DNA of 17,677 nucleotides from a virus: UHGV virus genome UHGV-0132791. One strand, written 5' to 3'. Shown one piece after another: positions 3,367 through 12,187 of this stretch; position 1 is the first letter of the stretch; each line of letters opens with the position of its first letter. The position numbers and the translations under genes were made by a program. A model generated the notes under the pieces. That model saw only the letters and a list, made by a program, of their open reading frames with translations, was not told the DNA's origin and did no database searches.

Positions 3367-3669
3367 TTATTCAGATTCTTTGGCTTTACGCCGCTGGAGT
3401 TCTTCACGAGCGACGGCTACGAGTTGCCCGATTTCCTCCGCTGCCTTGATGCCGATTTGTTCGACCTTAGCTAAGGCATCCAGTGAAGACACGAGGGGAT
3501 TTTCTCCGCTTCCTTCTGCCTGGCGGCGGGCGATCTCACCGCGCATGGCGGTTACTATGAATCCGGCGTTGCTTTCGCCGTCCAGTTTTACGGATTCCAT
3601 GCCCTCCATAACATCGTGGGGAACCCTGATCGTTGTCATTTGCGATTTTGCATTTTTGTATACAGACAT
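3367..3669 (-). CDS. Putative ribbon-helix-helix (Arc/CopG-like) transcriptional regulator; candidate element repressor
   Basis: 100-aa ORF; the N-terminus has an RHH-like pattern (β-strand TTIRVPHDV, helix, G-E-S-N turn, helix AGFIVTAMRGEIARR); transcribed divergently from the main element operon across a repeat-bearing intergenic region. Confidence 0.55.
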   Translation of the reverse strand: MSVYKNAKSQMTTIRVPHDVMEGMESVKLDGESNAGFIVTAMRGEIARRQAEGSGENPLVSSLDALAKVEQIGIKAAEEIGQLVAVAREELQRRKAKESE

Positions 3670-3877
3670 AGTTAATCACCAATTTGTTATGTGTATATCA
3701 CTATACACAAAAGTGAGATATAAAAACACTTGCAATGTATATCACCACAATATAATGTATATCTCATATTATGGTCGCTATGTATCTCACAATGATCGAT
3801 TCATAAAAACGACGAAACCCGGCAGTGCGCGAACACTAACCGGGCTTCTAACCAAACCGTTAAACGAGGTAACGATT
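3670..3877. promoter_or_regulatory. Divergent promoter/operator region with four ATGTATATC(A/T)C-type direct repeats
   Basis: TGTATATCAC at 3692-3701 and 3736-3745, TGTATATCTC at 3756-3765, TGTATCTCAC at 3781-3790; AT-rich; lies between the RHH gene start (3669) and the first gene of the plus-strand operon (3878). Confidence 0.5.
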
Positions 3878-4243
3878 ATGGCTGGAACACAGCATACCCA
3901 AACTCACCCTAAATTTATATACACCTTTCTGGCACTACACCACGACCGCATGGCAGATGGAGCAACTACGGTACATGTTGCCGCTGACACGCTGGTTGAT
4001 GCCCGCAAGATGGTTAAGGAGATGGGCTATACTGCGGCTTTCTGGAAAGGGCGTGAAGAAAACACGCTGTTTATTCAGAAATGCGAAAACAATTTCATCT
4101 GGCGTTTTATCGCCCTGAGCACCGCACAACCACGCGTAATACACATCGAGGCCGCCAGCGAACAGGAAGCCCGCCAACAATCCCCAACTGGCTGCGTGAT
4201 GATATTCGCCGCCCGTATTCGTCAGGAGGTATGCCGTGCTTAA
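3878..4243 (+). CDS. Hypothetical protein (first gene of element early operon)
   Basis: ATG at 3878 with GAGG 9-12 nt upstream. The ORF-track ORF 3329..4243 extends upstream antisense to the RHH gene; that extension is judged spurious. Confidence 0.55.
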   Translation: MAGTQHTQTHPKFIYTFLALHHDRMADGATTVHVAADTLVDARKMVKEMGYTAAFWKGREENTLFIQKCENNFIWRFIALSTAQPRVIHIEAASEQEARQQSPTGCVMIFAARIRQEVCRA

Positions 4244-4421: not shown

Positions 4422-4612
4422 TGCAGGAAATTACATTACACGAAGCCGCTGAACGTGCGCACCAGACAGAAATTATTTGCCGCCTTCTTGAGGTATACCC
4501 GAACAAAATTACAGATGCTGATATATCCGCACTGGCGAGCCTACTGGCGCGTCTTTCGGGAAGTGTCGCTAGTTTTTTGATTGAGGAAGAAAGTAAGCTG
4601 GTGGGGGATTAA
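4421..4612 (+). CDS. Hypothetical small protein
   Basis: ATG overlapping the upstream stop (TAATG at 4419-4423), AGAGG SD; 63 aa. Confidence 0.5.
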   Translation: MQEITLHEAAERAHQTEIICRLLEVYPNKITDADISALASLLARLSGSVASFLIEEESKLVGD

Positions 4613-5151: not shown

Positions 5152-6899
5152 AACTGGCACCGAACTTAAAAAAACAGCCACGCGACAGACTGACAGAGGT
5201 AATCATCTTTGCAGGTAGTGATGCGTGGAGCCATGCGAAAGAGTGGCAGGAATGGGCGGGTAAACATATTGCCGCCGACGATGTGCCGCCTGTCGTGCTG
5301 GCTGATGAGCAACTGAAAAATATCACCGATTACCGGATCATTGATGAAGATCGTCAGTGTGTGCGTGTTTACCGCGCAGGACATATCACAGAGCACAGCA
5401 TGACGCAGATTGTTACGTTATTGGCTGTGGCTGGAGTGAAGACCGTACACGAATACGCGGGGATTACTGACACCAGCCCCGTGGATTTATCCGACCAGTT
5501 GCCGCGACTCAAAGAGGAATGCGAGCGTGGGGAAAGTCTGGTGCTTAATCTTCCGACGAAGCAAAAGGCGCAACTTTCACAGATGGCAGACAGTGAACGT
5601 GCACAACTACTTGCCGATCGCTTTGATGGTGTGTGTGTTCATGCAGAAAGTGAAATCGTCCACGTATGGCGCGGCGGGGTATGGTGTCCGGTCAGCACAA
5701 TGGAGCTGAGCCGCGAAATGGTGGCGATCTATTCAGAGCACAGGGCCACATTCAGCAAGCGTGCAATTAATAACGCCGTGGAGGCGTTAAAAGTTATTGC
5801 CGACCCCATGGGGGAGCCGTCCGGTGATTTGCTACCGTTCGCCAATGGTGTGCTTGACCTGAAAACGGGGGAATTTTCCCCGCACTCGCCGGAGAACTGG
5901 ATCACCACGCACAACGGCATTGAGTACACGCCACCAGCACCAGGGGAGAACATCCGCGACAACGCGCCAAACTTTCATAAATGGCTTGATCACGCAGCCG
6001 GAAAAGACCCGCGCAAGATGATGCGTATATGTGCCGCGCTGTACATGATTATGGCGAACCGGTACGACTGGCAGATGTTTATTGAGGCCACCGGAGAGGG
6101 CGGTAGCGGTAAAAGTACATTCACACACATAGCCAGCCTTCTGGCAGGGAAACAGAACACGGTAAGCGCTGAAATGACATCGCTTGATGATGCTGGTGGA
6201 CGTGCGCAGGTTGTCGGGAGTCGTCTTATCGTCCTGGCTGACCAGCCGAAATATACAGGCGAAGGCACGGGCATCAAGAAAATCACGGGCGGCGACCCCG
6301 TGGAAATAAACCCGAAATATGAAAAGCGTTTTACGGCGGTAATCAGGGCGGTGGTGCTGGCTACCAACAATAACCCGATGATATTCACCGAACGGGCCGG
6401 AGGTGTGTCACGTCGTCGCGTAATTTTCCGCTTCGACAATATCGTTAGCGAGGCAGAAAAGGACAAGGATTTACCGGAGAAGGTCGCGGCTGAAATCCCC
6501 GTGATTATCCGCAGATTGCTGGCAAACTTTGCTGATCCAGAAAAGGCGCGACATTTGTTGATTGAACAGCGCGACGGTGAAGAAGCACTGGCGATAAAGC
6601 AACAGACGGATCCGGTTATTGAGTTTTGCCAGTTTCTGAATTTTCTGGAGGAAGCGCGCGGCCTGATGATGGGTGGCGGTGGCGATTCCGTGAAGTACAC
6701 GACCAGAAACAGCCTTTACCGCGTCTATCTGGCGTTTATGGCATACGCAGGCAGAAGCAAGCCGCTAAACGTGGCTGATTTCAGCAAGGCCATGAAGCCA
6801 GCGGCGAAAGTTTACGGATGTGAATATATAACGCGCAGGGTTAAAGGACTTACGCAAACCAATGTGACAACAACAGAGGATTGCGACGCGTTTTTATAA
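5148..6899 (+). CDS. Replication initiator, primase-helicase type (P4 alpha C-terminal / PICI Pri-Rep-like SF3 ATPase)
   Basis: 583 aa; Walker A GEGGSGKST (6093-6119), Walker B-like LIVLAD; overall pattern of the phage/plasmid primase P4-family C-terminal domain; followed directly by an iteron array. Confidence 0.85.
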   Translation: MKLAPNLKKQPRDRLTEVIIFAGSDAWSHAKEWQEWAGKHIAADDVPPVVLADEQLKNITDYRIIDEDRQCVRVYRAGHITEHSMTQIVTLLAVAGVKTVHEYAGITDTSPVDLSDQLPRLKEECERGESLVLNLPTKQKAQLSQMADSERAQLLADRFDGVCVHAESEIVHVWRGGVWCPVSTMELSREMVAIYSEHRATFSKRAINNAVEALKVIADPMGEPSGDLLPFANGVLDLKTGEFSPHSPENWITTHNGIEYTPPAPGENIRDNAPNFHKWLDHAAGKDPRKMMRICAALYMIMANRYDWQMFIEATGEGGSGKSTFTHIASLLAGKQNTVSAEMTSLDDAGGRAQVVGSRLIVLADQPKYTGEGTGIKKITGGDPVEINPKYEKRFTAVIRAVVLATNNNPMIFTERAGGVSRRRVIFRFDNIVSEAEKDKDLPEKVAAEIPVIIRRLLANFADPEKARHLLIEQRDGEEALAIKQQTDPVIEFCQFLNFLEEARGLMMGGGGDSVKYTTRNSLYRVYLAFMAYAGRSKPLNVADFSKAMKPAAKVYGCEYITRRVKGLTQTNVTTTEDCDAFL

Positions 6900-6904
6900 T
6901 TTTA

Positions 6905-7145
6905 GACAAAAGCCCTCTACCTCCTCTACCTAAAGAAAATAAATATATATTATTCAATATGATAAGAAGGTAGAGGGTCAGGTAGAAGGCAAATAAAAGC
7001 CCTCTACCTCCTCCACCATGATTAAGGTCATTTGTGAGGGGCGGGTAGAGGATGGGTAGAGGGCCCCGAAAGCCCTCTACCCATCTGAAAGCCGCGCCAT
7101 TACTGACCTGAAAGATGATTAGGTAGAGAGGTAGAGGAGGTGCAC
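6905..7145. repeat. Iteron array / putative element replication origin
   Basis: About 11 copies of CCTCTACC / GGTAGAGG in both orientations (e.g. 6913-6930, 6969-6989, 6999-7017, 7043-7063, 7073-7082, 7122-7140), including the inverted pair GGGTAGAGGGC…GCCCTCTACCC (7054-7082), flanking an AT-rich stretch (6931-6968); immediately 3' of the replication gene. Confidence 0.7.
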
Positions 7146-9895: not shown

Positions 9896-9913
9896 CCGGC
9901 AATCCGGCAGACT

Positions 9914-9950
9914 ACGGGGCGGAAGGCGCGCGGGTTTTCGCTATTTATGA
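9914..9950. other. cos-like site (cosN region) of the element
   Basis: ACGGGGCGGAAGGCGCGCGGGTTTTCGCTATTTATGA: flanks match the lambda cos left-end sequence as I recall it (…ACGGGGCGGCGACCTCGCGGGTTTTCGCTATTTATGA…), but the central hexamer differs (AAGGCG vs CGACCT); lies about 150 bp upstream of the Nu1-like TerS, as in lambda. Confidence 0.6.
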
Positions 9951-10076: not shown

Positions 10077-10604
10077 ATGAACAAAAAAAACATGGCAAAA
10101 AGTTGCCGTGTAAGCGCCACTGCGTTCGATAAGTGGGGAGTGATTCCCGTCGAGCGTAAGGGCCGCGAGGCGTTTTATGATGTCGCCAGTGTAATAGATA
10201 ATCGGGTTAACAATGCAATCAGCCAGATTACAAACGAAACGGGCGAGATTGATGATGATGAACTCCTACGAGTCAGGATCAGATTGCTGACAGCACAGGC
10301 AGAGGCGCAGGAGCTTAAAAACGAGCGCGAACGCGGCGACGTTATTGATACAGCGTTTTGTATATACGTGCTTTCAAAACTGGCGAGTCAGATTTCTTCA
10401 ATCATGGACAGCCTGCCGCTTGCCATGACAAGGAAGTTTCCCGACATGAAGCCGTCTATGCTGGATGGACTGAAAAAAGAAGTTATCAGAGCCTGTAACG
10501 CATGCGCAAAACTTGACGAAAACATACCGCTGATGCTGTCCGATTATCTGATGGAAACTGCCGGAAACGTACCGGATAAGTTGCAGCTGAATAAAGATAA
10601 GTAA
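10077..10604 (+). CDS. Terminase small subunit, lambda Nu1-like
   Basis: Homology to lambda Nu1 (MNKKNMAKS…YDVASVID…LLTAQAEAQELKNERERGDVIDTAFCIYVLSKLASQISSIMDSLPLAMTRKFPDMK vs Nu1 …LTRAQADAQELKNARDSAEVVETAFCTFVLSRIAGEIASILDGLPLSVQRRFPELE). ORF track begins at a GTG at 10053; ATG 10077 is chosen by alignment with the Nu1 N-terminus. Confidence 0.85.
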   Translation: MNKKNMAKSCRVSATAFDKWGVIPVERKGREAFYDVASVIDNRVNNAISQITNETGEIDDDELLRVRIRLLTAQAEAQELKNERERGDVIDTAFCIYVLSKLASQISSIMDSLPLAMTRKFPDMKPSMLDGLKKEVIRACNACAKLDENIPLMLSDYLMETAGNVPDKLQLNKDK

Positions 10605-10615
10605 CGTAGTACGCT

Positions 10616-10897
10616 ATGACTGAATCCGAAATACTGCGATTAATCCGCCGTGCTTGTGGAATCAGCAAGCAGCATGACGAACAGGCCACGCAGCCGGACA
10701 GCGTGATCGCCGAAAATTACGCGCGTGTTGTTGCTGATGTGATGCGCCGTGATGGTATTGAGCTTAACGGCGTGGATATGCGCGACATACGGATCAGATT
10801 CCTTGAGTTGCTGGCATACCGTCGCCGTTCTCAACAACGAAGGGAGAGCGCGAAAAACACTTATCAGTGGAAGAAGCCGGAACGGTTGCGGCGGTAG
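10616..10897 (+). CDS. Hypothetical basic protein downstream of TerS
   Basis: 93-aa ORF, ATG at 10616 twelve nt after the TerS stop; no recognisable similarity to terminase large subunit. Confidence 0.45.
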   Translation: MTESEILRLIRRACGISKQHDEQATQPDSVIAENYARVVADVMRRDGIELNGVDMRDIRIRFLELLAYRRRSQQRRESAKNTYQWKKPERLRR

Positions 10898-11235
10898 ATT
10901 CCTGATATTCAGGAAAACCACGAATCCGGGGGTTTACTGGCGCGGTTACGGCGGTGACACACACCGAGGCAGAACAATTACCGTAGGTTAAAGCGACAGT
11001 ATTCACACCAAAGGCAGAAATTAGCTGTTAACGTAACTGACTGATATTTTCGGGAACAGCCAACGGCTGAGGCCGGAGCTATAAAAATAGCTTTGGGTAC
11101 AGTCCTCAGTTTTGAGGGATGTTAACCAACTGAATAATAAGCAAACCTCAAAATTGAGTTTTGTATCTGCCTGAGTTATTTCTGTGCTAACTTGCTGATA
11201 TTCCCGATAACGCAAAATTGCGTTGGCTGGTGGGT

Positions 11236-11255
11236 GAGTTGCAGATCTGCAACTC
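11236..11255. repeat. 20-bp perfect palindrome GAGTTGCAGATCTGCAACTC near right end of element
   Basis: Exact dyad symmetry over 20 bp, about 140 bp inside the right att core; contains the TTGCA motif shared with the arm-type repeats. Confidence 0.6.
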
Positions 11256-11299
11256 GGCTATGAAACTTAATAATCGAACAGCATGTAAATTCATTTCTG

Positions 11300-11320
11300 T
11301 GTATTGCAGCATGTATTGCA
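11300..11320 (+). repeat. TGTATTGCAGCATGTATTGCA direct repeats (candidate arm-type sites), right end
   Basis: Matches 911-930 (TGTATTGCAGCTTGTATTGC) with one mismatch, in the same orientation, about 77 bp inside the right core. Confidence 0.5.
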
Positions 11321-11396
11321 ACATAGTCATTCTGGTAGAGATTATGCTCTATTTTTCCTCTTATATCATTCACATACTTACGTCATTGACTCATGT

Positions 11397-11406
11397 AACC
11401 CAAGCA
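11397..11406 (+). repeat. Right copy of 10-bp att core / target duplication (AACCCAAGCA)
   Basis: Identical to 773-782; preceded by an in-frame TAA (11396-11398) that ends the element-side frame. Confidence 0.75.
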
Positions 11407-12187
11407 TGAGGTGAATCCGCAGATGACCCTGCGTCGCCTGCCGGATGAAGATCCGCAGAACCTGGCTGACCCGGCTTACCGTCGTCGCCGTATTATTCGG
11501 CAGAATATGCTGGATGAAAATCTGGCGATTGCCCAGGTCGAAGAGATGCAGGCAGTTTCTGCCGTGCTTAAGGGCAAATATACCATGACCGGTGAAGCCT
11601 TCGATCCGGTTGAGGTGGATATGGGCCGCAGTGAGGCGAATAACATCACGCAGTCCGGCGGCACGGAGTGGAGCAAGCGTGACAAGTCCACGTATGACCC
11701 GACCGACGATATCGAAGCCTACGCGCTGAACGCCAGCGGTGTGGTGAATATCATCGTGTTCGATCCGAAAGGCTGGGCGCTGTTCCGTTCCTTCAAAGCC
11801 GTCAAGGAGAAGCTGGATACCCGTCGCGGCTCTCATTCCGAGCTGGAGACAGCGGTAAAAGACCTGGGCAAAGCGGTGTCCTATAAGGGAATGTATGGCG
11901 ATGTGGCCATCGTCGTGTATTCCGGACAGTACGTGGAAAACGGCGTCAAAAAGAACTTCCTGCCGGACAACACGATGGTGCTGGGGAACACTCAGGCTCG
12001 CGGTCTGCGCACCTATGGCTGCATTCAGGATGCGGACGCACAGCGCGAAGGCATTAACGCCTCTGCCCGTTACCCGAAAAACTGGGTGACCACCGGCGAT
12101 CCGGCGCGTGAGTTCACCATGATTCAGTCAGCACCGCTGATGCTGCTGGCTGATCCTGATGAGTTCGTGTCCGTACAACTGGCGTAA
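11399..12187 (+). pseudogene. E: Major capsid protein gpE, 3' fragment (codons ~80-341), separated from its 5' part by the insertion
   Basis: Translation PKHEVNPQMTLRRLPDEDPQNLADPAYRRRRII…DEFVSVQLA* matches the lambda gpE C-terminal 260 residues almost exactly; there is no start codon or RBS of its own at the homology boundary (the ORF track starts at an internal GTG at 11411). Confidence 0.9.

Follow-up and report, generated by a model that had tools for sequence, protein, structure and literature searches.

The stretch of DNA analysed here, 17,677 bp in length and called the window below, is the late region of a lambda-like prophage (genes D, E, FI, FII, Z, U, V, G and T) whose major capsid gene, E, is interrupted by a 10.6-kb satellite. 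The satellite carries genes for a tyrosine integrase that has an arm-binding domain, for AlpA and a second AlpA-like protein, for a D5-type primase and an SSB, for a capsid protein of its own from the E family, for a decoration protein of the D family and for a small terminase of the Nu1 family, as well as orf93. It is a helper-embedded PICI of the '11capE' type, a known kind of element for which Tommasini, Mageeney and Williams (2023) described 201 members at this capsid site, a 10-bp identity block shared by attL and attR, and a doubled motif, tgTGTATTGCantgTGTATTGCa, that flanks the attP centre on both sides, at 81 bp upstream and at 132 bp downstream (PMC10111431). In the window, the right copy of the identity block, AACCCAAGCA, lies at positions 11397–11406 on the plus strand, within prophage gene E, and its left copy at 773–782. 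The doubled arm motif of helper-embedded PICIs, here TCTGTGTATTGCAGCATGTATTGC, occupies 11296–11319 on the plus strand, 81 bp from the attP centre, with its left copy at 907–930 (repeat family D19). Both the satellite type and its arm motif are already published.

The last satellite gene, orf93 (phrog_1561; 10616–10897, plus strand), has 963 homologues, of which those listed are all unnamed or 'hypothetical', and its structural model, of moderate confidence (pLDDT 71), contains three helices and a basic tail. A protein-anchored scan of genome contigs with orf93 gave no match. A repeat array begins at its stop codon, and the 499-bp tract between that stop and the block AACCCAAGCA contains no credible gene. 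Within this tract, at 11236–11255, lies a 20-bp perfect palindrome, GAGTTGCAGATCTGCAACTC, preceded by a hairpin, AACGCAAAATTGCGTT (11209–11224), and by a Chi octamer, GCTGGTGG (11226–11233, plus strand), 2 bp upstream of it.

Sequence, natural variants and folding of the palindrome

The sequence GAGTTGCAGATCTGCAACTC equals its own reverse complement. No other perfect palindrome of at least 14 bp occurs in the window, where the runners-up are five 12-mers. The analytic expectation for a perfect palindrome of 20 bp is 0.017 per window, and this length was reached in 2% of 1,000 first-order Markov simulations. The preliminary description of the locus had reported an exact dyad, far from random, in a non-coding location between the last satellite gene and the right core, and both observations stand. 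Because the dyad is real, non-random and, as described below, conserved in relatives, it is reasonable to propose that the palindrome may act in cis, either as a protein-binding site or as a stem-loop.

Among close relatives, the 7-bp arms GAGTTGC and GCAACTC are constant and the central 6 bp vary, reading AGATCT, TGATCT, AGATTT, TGATTT, AAATCT or AAATTT. The centre of the window's palindrome, AGATCT, thus includes a Dam GATC, but several natural variants are missing it, which rules out the Dam site as the key feature. A one-base variant with broken symmetry, GAGTTGCTGATCTGCAACTC, is present in four capsid-site loci (L004–L006 and L010). In KE47 (loci L292 and L207), where the surrounding sequence module has 76% identity, the palindrome reads GAATTGCAAATTTGCAACTC; here a double change, G9A and C12T, preserves the central pair, and a third change, G3A, is uncompensated.

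The copy in FDAARGOS_1296 is also imperfect, without the GTTGCA-N4-TGCAAC core. This E. coli locus (L294, 16407–20870) is a nearly identical composite of satellite and helper, with an IS66 in the satellite primase gene and several helper late genes that are pseudogenes; its satellite copy is probably immobile.

When folded, the palindrome gives a hairpin with an 8-bp stem and a 4-nt loop, with a predicted free energy of −10.1 kcal/mol as RNA and −6.8 kcal/mol as DNA. The RNA hairpins of the most diverged copies reach only −3.9 and −6.5 kcal/mol. Fold z-scores are −5.1 for the full module of satellite L001 and −2.0 for the relic of it that is found in the window.

A non-coding tail module in PICI satellites

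In other PICI types, the palindrome is always the first part of the same block, which runs from the palindrome into GACCATGAAACTACGGAAACTACCCGTAGTTTGGGTAGTAAGAGTAACACCCAGATTTTGGGG and onward, and this block has at least four different left contexts and at least three right contexts. We collected the block independently with a 24-nt anchor taken from inside it, the palindrome being excluded from the anchor. All 73 of the 73 complete contexts obtained in this way carry the palindrome, with both 7-bp arms invariant; as they were collected without it, this independently supports that the palindrome is not a matter of chance. The conserved core of this tail module is ~85 nt and evenly conserved throughout, its flanks vary, and the full module measures ~85–145 bp. 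The stem of the hairpin that comes next after the palindrome is retained through three different loop indels.

The module occurs in 664 of 5,426 complete E. coli genomes, at 755 places and at up to six per genome, and is nearly always unannotated. Its E. coli copies are very alike, the KE47 copy being the single diverged one found. In every locus whose gene content was inspected, a minority of the 755 E. coli places, the element lies inside a PICI-type satellite; the module was not found in the phage collection. Among 80 IMG/VR loci anchored on orf93, every late-module class of PICI has the exact palindrome. Neither the palindrome nor the module is mentioned in Rfam or in the PICI literature examined, including PMC10111431, and this sequence-conserved non-coding element of about one-eighth of complete E. 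coli genomes appears to be new.

The window retains 42 bp of the module (11226–11267, plus strand), made up of Chi, the palindrome and 12 further base pairs, as judged by homology to satellites L001 and L002 and by comparison with the full module. L001 and L002 are relatives in the late module that lie at another site, beside tRNA-Ile/mug; a further relative of this kind, the capsid-forming PICI L003, lies beside phoQ. The window and L001/L002 are homologous at the nucleotide level through the late genes and the tail, palindrome included, up to 11267/11265, which is 10–12 bp past the palindrome and at the start of an arm of the helper-embedded type; the int–alpA region is unshared. As a description of the locus, it is very probable that the palindrome is the front end of a PICI tail module, of which a 42-bp relic has been fused to the helper-embedded arm. 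The palindrome would then be the first element of a non-coding module that follows the last late-zone gene in many enterobacterial PICIs, and a past swap of the integration module would have left Chi, the palindrome and 12 bp joined to a helper-embedded att arm. On this account, the palindrome seems near the right attachment site because the truncated module is joined directly to the att arm.

The truncation also bears on whether the palindrome in this satellite does anything at all. It could be a functionless relic, a recombination scar that persists because the lineage is young and because Chi focuses crossovers. The 42 bp that remain of an ~85–145-bp module agree with such a scar, as do the two breakpoints, the left one at Chi (relative to the L004 tail type) and the right one 12 bp past the palindrome. 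Most capsid-site relatives do not have the palindrome at this position, and its symmetry is broken by GAGTTGCTGATCTGCAACTC in L004–L006 and L010 and imperfect in FDAARGOS_1296. However, the complete module is both common and strongly conserved, and in other genera the palindrome turns up again in another zone of the satellites, which speaks for the element as such having a function, if not necessarily in this copy. We regard a mere scar as unlikely, and accept that this particular copy may be without any function.

Outside Escherichia, exact-pattern matches were found in PICI-like elements of Pantoea rodasii, Pluralibacter gergoviae and Rahnella perminowiae. In all three, the palindrome is located ~1.0–1.2 kb downstream of alpA, in a hairpin-dense gap where two early genes converge, one of the Bro type reading rightward and one ylcI/ynfO-like reading leftward. 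It has the same 7-bp arms, and its flanks are unrelated to the E. coli tails. The remaining exact-pattern matches are scattered in unrelated MAGs in about the number expected by chance, and those inspected lie in ordinary terminator-like contexts.

Two further arrangements of the module were seen. In L063 (3632–4090) and L078 (3331–3790), it is duplicated as direct repeats ~434 bp apart, and it is also duplicated in L105, L116, L129 and L146. The block between the repeats contains three TTGCGGGTTA iterons, an A/T-rich stretch and three inverted copies of TAACCCGC, and it looks like a replication origin placed in the tail. In the capsid-site satellites L207 and L292 (KE47), ~1 kb of extra DNA lies between the palindrome module and the att arm, which suggests that the late zone ends at the module and that cargo can be taken up beyond it.

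Relation of the palindrome to the attachment site, integrase and AlpA

The preliminary description placed the palindrome near the right attachment site and saw in it a candidate site for a dimeric protein (a recombination directionality factor, a regulator or a host factor), to be checked with the integrase and the two AlpA-like proteins. As an arm-region site for the satellite's AlpA-like directionality factor or integrase, the palindrome would act in excision. It does lie on the int-distal arm, ~150 bp from the crossover region, and the int-distal arm is also where lambda has its Xis sites. It also has TTGCA in common with the doubled arm motif, TGTATTGCA; this shared sequence, noticed from the start, is present, but a mere 5-mer is too short to be given weight. 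Against these two points stand the partners with which the palindrome co-occurs, its variable position and the published attP analysis, and together they make such a site highly improbable.

The palindrome is found with distant integrases and with unrelated proteins at the alpA position, and far from the att sites of those satellites. Between the window and L001/L002, the integrases share 28% identity, at the N-terminus only, and the alpA-position proteins are unrelated. L001 has a candidate doubled arm motif of its own, GGTATCCTATAGGTATCCT, located beside int (1719–1737) and again just before the tRNA-Ile gene; its palindrome is ~500 bp from that gene, and the motifs of the palindrome are missing from its int-proximal arm. 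In L293, a 10.8-kb circular PICI record, the palindrome lies ~400 bp from a candidate doubled motif consisting of two copies of GGTGTAGTTAAT. An arm site for integrases of the tRNA-Ile or phoQ type was rejected on the same observations, namely their own apparent doubled motifs near the island ends and an int-proximal arm without the palindrome's motifs. GAGTTGC is missing from the int-proximal arm of the window's satellite (the nearest copy is at 3421), and TGTATTGC is on both arms.

The position of the palindrome relative to the core is not fixed. Its offset among capsid-site elements is −151 in the window, L004 and L010, and −1156 in L207 and L292; four others (L176, L191, L251 and L278) have no palindrome to place relative to the core. 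One arm type (L207) is like the window's inner arm from ~8 bp before the doubled motif. By scanning for the doubled motif, we found more capsid-site right arms with the same core and spacing from which the palindrome is missing within 130 bp, and it is also missing from 16 helper-embedded loci that have the doubled motif at another late-gene site. The junction between palindrome and arm is present in 5 of the 46 complete E. coli genomes that carry a capsid-site right arm of this type. The conservation check in related elements, to which the preliminary description had attached its proposal, thus went against that proposal, with the palindrome shifted or missing in capsid-site relatives.

A comparison with the published arm motif leads to the same place. 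The palindrome and tgTGTATTGCantgTGTATTGCa belong to the same satellite family and the same arm, with the palindrome 45 bp upstream and TTGCA in common. Unlike the palindrome, the doubled motif keeps a fixed distance to the core and is present on both arms and in every element (PMC10111431), whereas the palindrome is found on one side only, at a variable distance or not at all, and also with other integrases. In the published attP analysis, which covered more than 500 elements of this kind, the doubled motif is reported and no palindrome is mentioned (PMC10111431).

The gene content of 48 full-length satellites was compared with the presence of the palindrome. Only orf93 tracks it (30/31 vs 5/17), probably because of physical linkage. 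In these satellites, the palindrome showed no association with int, with either AlpA-like gene, with TerS or with the YlcI-like gene, and a site for the first or second AlpA-like protein, TerS or the YlcI-like protein was discarded for this lack of co-occurrence. Another helper-embedded type (L007) has a TGCA-N4-TGCA palindrome upstream of its arm, a feature that we set aside as not general across types. On these sequence comparisons, the palindrome is not part of this satellite's att site, and in excision studies of capsid-embedded satellites it should not be counted as a part of attP.

Doubled motifs on both sides of the att region also appear to be present in PICIs with other integrases, as with GGTATCCTATAGGTATCCT in L001. 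L293 has a candidate doubled motif, GGTGTAGTTAATGGTGTAGTTAAT, at ~10697–10720 and again ~140 bp before int, and the tails of L003 and L024 appear to be of this kind too. Because these PICIs appear to have motifs of their own, the doubled-arm architecture is perhaps not peculiar to helper-embedded PICIs; what is peculiar to them may be the sequence of the motif.

Neighbouring hairpins, IHF-consensus units and Chi

Arrays of a ~45-bp unit follow orf93 in many PICIs, at 10895–11224 in the window and in the tails of L003, L007, L024, L063 and L078. Each unit comprises an IHF-consensus site, then a short G+C hairpin whose loop is A/T, and a G-rich end, GGCTGG; the first of them overlaps with the stop codon of orf93. 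In the window, the repeat unit TAACTTGCTGATATT is located at 11188–11202 and reads TATCAGcaagTTA on the minus strand, with copies at 11034–11048 and 10895–10909 (2 mismatches to the unit pattern). The IHF consensus is WATCAANNNNTTR, and TATCAGcaagTTA differs from it by one base, a G for the last core A, making it a candidate site. More generally, the opposite strand of the tail unit TAACnnnnYTGATWnT matches or nearly matches WATCAANNNNTTR. The unit pattern is enriched, with five matches against 1.08 expected, a number reached in none of 200 shuffles.

A short G+C stem closed by an A/T loop comes after each unit, and exact and near matches to WATCAANNNNTTR lie beside hairpins. A perfect stem of at least 5 bp was present at the expected place in 48% of candidate units, compared with 9% in shuffles, and ~30 different stem sequences were found; the hairpins of the units thus keep their structure and not their sequence. 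Where the window has the hairpin AACGCAAAATTGCGTT, ahead of the palindrome, the hairpins of other satellites differ in sequence. The palindrome is unlike these neighbours in that its arm sequence is fixed.

The Chi octamer at 11226 is the point at which similarity between the window's tail and the other capsid-site tail type (L004) begins, and Chi precedes the palindrome in 14 of 37 distinct contexts. Six Chi sites are present in the window, at 4597, 6192, 7469 and 11226 on the plus strand and at 5931 and 7803 on the minus strand. All are within the satellite; 0.71 are expected, and six were reached in none of 200 shuffles.

Chi is dense in other satellites as well. Its density is 5.6–8.3 per 10 kb in the window element, L001 and L293, compared with a random expectation of 0.31, and 7.7 per 10 kb over 38 IMG/VR satellite contigs, with the orientation skewed toward the late genes (223:125). 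The Gam-encoding lambda-like helper has 0–0.8 per 10 kb. Chi richness could protect Gam-less satellites from RecBCD. We found no report of it for satellites in the literature searched.

Known element classes

We compared the palindrome and its tail with several known classes of element. As an intrinsic terminator, the palindrome would offer a stable, G+C-containing stem-loop. However, no U-tract follows the stem, which is succeeded by GGCTATGAAACT on the plus strand and by ACCCACCAGCC on the minus strand, and a terminator scan of 10898–11420 returned nothing. Because the U-run is missing on either strand and the scan was empty, it is not a canonical intrinsic terminator. Rfam covariance models gave nothing at gathering score, and nothing meaningful at E ≤ 5, for either the window tail or the L001 module.

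Promoters were considered in two forms. A sigma-54 promoter, which could be read from CTGG-N9-TTGCA in the window, was dropped when its spacing proved not to be kept in other left contexts. No sigma-70 promoter was found at the palindrome, and the sole sigma-70-like match in 10500–11500 lies at 11369–11341 on the minus strand. Below the threshold of that scan, one can still draw a weak promoter with its own operator, with a −35 of TTGCAG inside the palindrome, a 17-bp spacer and a −10 of GAAACT, directed rightward across the att arm; in full modules, such a promoter would drive a small RNA made of the downstream hairpins. The segment retained in the window ends directly after the putative −10, and the downstream part of the module is hairpin-rich, as this proposal would have it. 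Yet the match covers 7 of 12 consensus positions, the module has no Rfam match and no terminator downstream, and the diverged copy has lost the outer stem of the third hairpin downstream. We consider this promoter very improbable.

A cos site in the tail was discarded, since a cos-like sequence, ACG GGGCGGAAGGCG CGCGGGTTTTCGCTATTTATGA, is located instead at ~9917–9950, within 9910–9950, upstream of the Nu1-family gene. Compared with the lambda left end, its flank is identical and the 12-nt cohesive-end positions differ at five (GGGCGGCGACCT in lambda). A weaker cosN-like sequence, GGTTACGGCGGTGAC, is present at 10944–10958. L002 has the palindrome and is missing window positions 10919–11187. 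The placing of the cos-like sequence before the Nu1-family gene corresponds to the cos–rpp arrangement known from PICIs (PMC9026076). Published 11capE elements are said to be without terS (PMC10111431); unlike them, the window element has a Phage_Nu1 match (E = 1.4e-24). We rejected orf93 as an Rpp because Rpp proteins are winged-HTH proteins of 139–154 aa.

Proteins that might bind the palindrome were also considered. The operators of the helper repressor and Cro are of a different type, ATAGCAAT..TATT, and these proteins were set aside. The model of orf93 (pLDDT 71) shows no recognisable DNA-binding fold, and on this moderately confident model orf93 was set aside as a binder.

A possible stem-loop or operator

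We now turn to what the element may do. We propose that, where it is active, it serves as a stem-loop or boundary element at which a transcription unit ends: behind the late operon in E. coli, and between convergent early genes in Pantoea, Pluralibacter and Rahnella. The hairpin would form in read-through transcripts, where it would either shield their 3′ end or, in the circular satellite, limit how much transcription runs on through attP into int. With Chi beside it, the element would be a preferred crossover point and a hot spot for module exchange, a preference that would fit the palindrome's position at mosaic junctions. Taken as a whole, as the front end of a tail module and a boundary stem-loop, this is our best explanation of the palindrome, held tentatively and a little short of what we would call probable. 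The stem-loop or boundary mechanism, judged by itself, is possible and somewhat doubtful.

The natural variants bear on this mechanism in both directions. Most of the variation falls in the central 6 bp, where the loop would be, and the KE47 double change keeps a pair, both of which are consistent with a stem-loop. However, no U-tract follows the stem, which counts against this mechanism, the diverged copies lose much stability without compensating changes in the outer stem, and the arm sequence is the same across genera while the stems of the neighbouring hairpins change. Arms that are fixed beside neighbours that drift suggest that the sequence itself is recognised, rather than just the structure. 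Part of this invariance is an ascertainment effect, because the distant copies were found by sequence.

Recognition of this kind leads to a second explanation, in which the palindrome is a double-stranded operator for a sequence-specific protein that is shared among Enterobacterales or their lambdoid helpers and binds as a dimer or as a dimer of dimers. Such a protein would contact TTGC/GCAA half-sites placed 10 bp apart across an A/T-rich spacer, with GTTGCA, which is present twice and inverted, as a candidate motif. The 4+6+4 geometry of the half-sites is typical of HTH dimers, and GTTGCA is the recognition motif of the ribbon-helix-helix domain of PutA. Exact dyad symmetry, conserved half-sites and a concentration of variation in the central spacer are in keeping with an operator, and so are arms that stay identical in E. 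coli, Pantoea, Pluralibacter and Rahnella despite unrelated flanks while the neighbouring hairpins drift. The K-12 putA–putP control region contains six GTTGCA/TGCAAC in 422 bp, compared with 0.2 expected, which fits the PutA motif. The likeness to PutA, however, is a 6-mer picked post hoc among many motifs; the flanks are unlike put sites, and nothing evident links the two biologically. Of the satellite genes, the neighbouring orf93 alone co-occurs with the palindrome, and its model has no recognisable DNA-binding fold; the helper repressor and Cro operators are different, and no sigma-70 promoter overlaps. The partial ascertainment of the arms counts here as well. An operator is somewhat unlikely, and we give it a place as the main alternative.

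The same motif allows a bolder proposal that we consider improbable: the satellites would have in the palindrome a dedicated cis element whose sequence is read by a conserved factor of the host or the helper, such as a ribbon-helix-helix protein that lands on the inverted GTTGCA. This landing site would lie within a host-factor pad, made up of IHF sites and Chi, that borders the two fast-changing zones of the satellites. If true, the physiology of the host or the state of the helper could thereby be coupled to transcription, replication or module exchange of the satellite.

Comparison with known systems

Returning to the boundary stem-loop, its surroundings appear most comparable to extragenic palindromes of the REP/BIME type, including the IHF-binding RIP/BIME-1. 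As in these, the palindrome is extragenic and lies at operon 3′ ends or between convergent genes; it forms stem-loop-capable units without a U-tract, present at several places per genome and at points of mosaicism; and candidate IHF sites, recognized by their match to the consensus, adjoin it. It differs from REP in having no similarity to the REP consensus, and unlike REP, which is spread chromosome-wide, it lies in PICI satellites at all inspected loci, a minority of the 755 places. Also unlike REP/BIME, the palindrome keeps its sequence while its neighbours keep structure only, and Chi is often attached.

Lambda sib offers a second comparison. Like sib, the palindrome would here be a stem-loop beside attP whose transcriptional neighbours differ between the integrated and circular forms; for the palindrome, read-through from the late operon would cross it and attP into int in the circular form only. 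Unlike sib, which is downstream of int and is an RNase III site, the palindrome is upstream of int and is not linked to att in relatives. The operators of dimeric regulators, such as the 434-type ACAA-N6-TTGT and the GTTGCA sites of PutA, resemble the palindrome in their dyad, in 4-bp half-sites 10 bp apart and in an A/T-rich spacer, and PutA sites resemble it further in the two inverted GTTGCA. Unlike such operators, the palindrome has no overlapping promoter, no co-occurring regulator gene, no match to the helper operators and no link to the put regulon.

The element is found repeatedly along the edges of the satellites' variable zones. Should it be a boundary stem-loop with an attached Chi, it would help to explain how integration and packaging modules are swapped so freely. 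If it binds a factor, it would provide a handle on how helper and host control Gram-negative PICIs.

Additional features of the satellite

Iteron-like repeats are located at 6908–7098, directly downstream of the primase gene, and consist of two copies of AAAAGCCCTCTACCTCCTCYACC and an inverted pair of GGGTAGAGG (repeat families D3 and I3); this is the position where a PICI origin is expected. At 3811–3883 on the minus strand, between the YlcI-like gene and an Icd-like region, the window matches the family of the SymR antitoxin RNA below threshold, scoring 35.3 bits where the gathering score is 61 (E = 4e-4).
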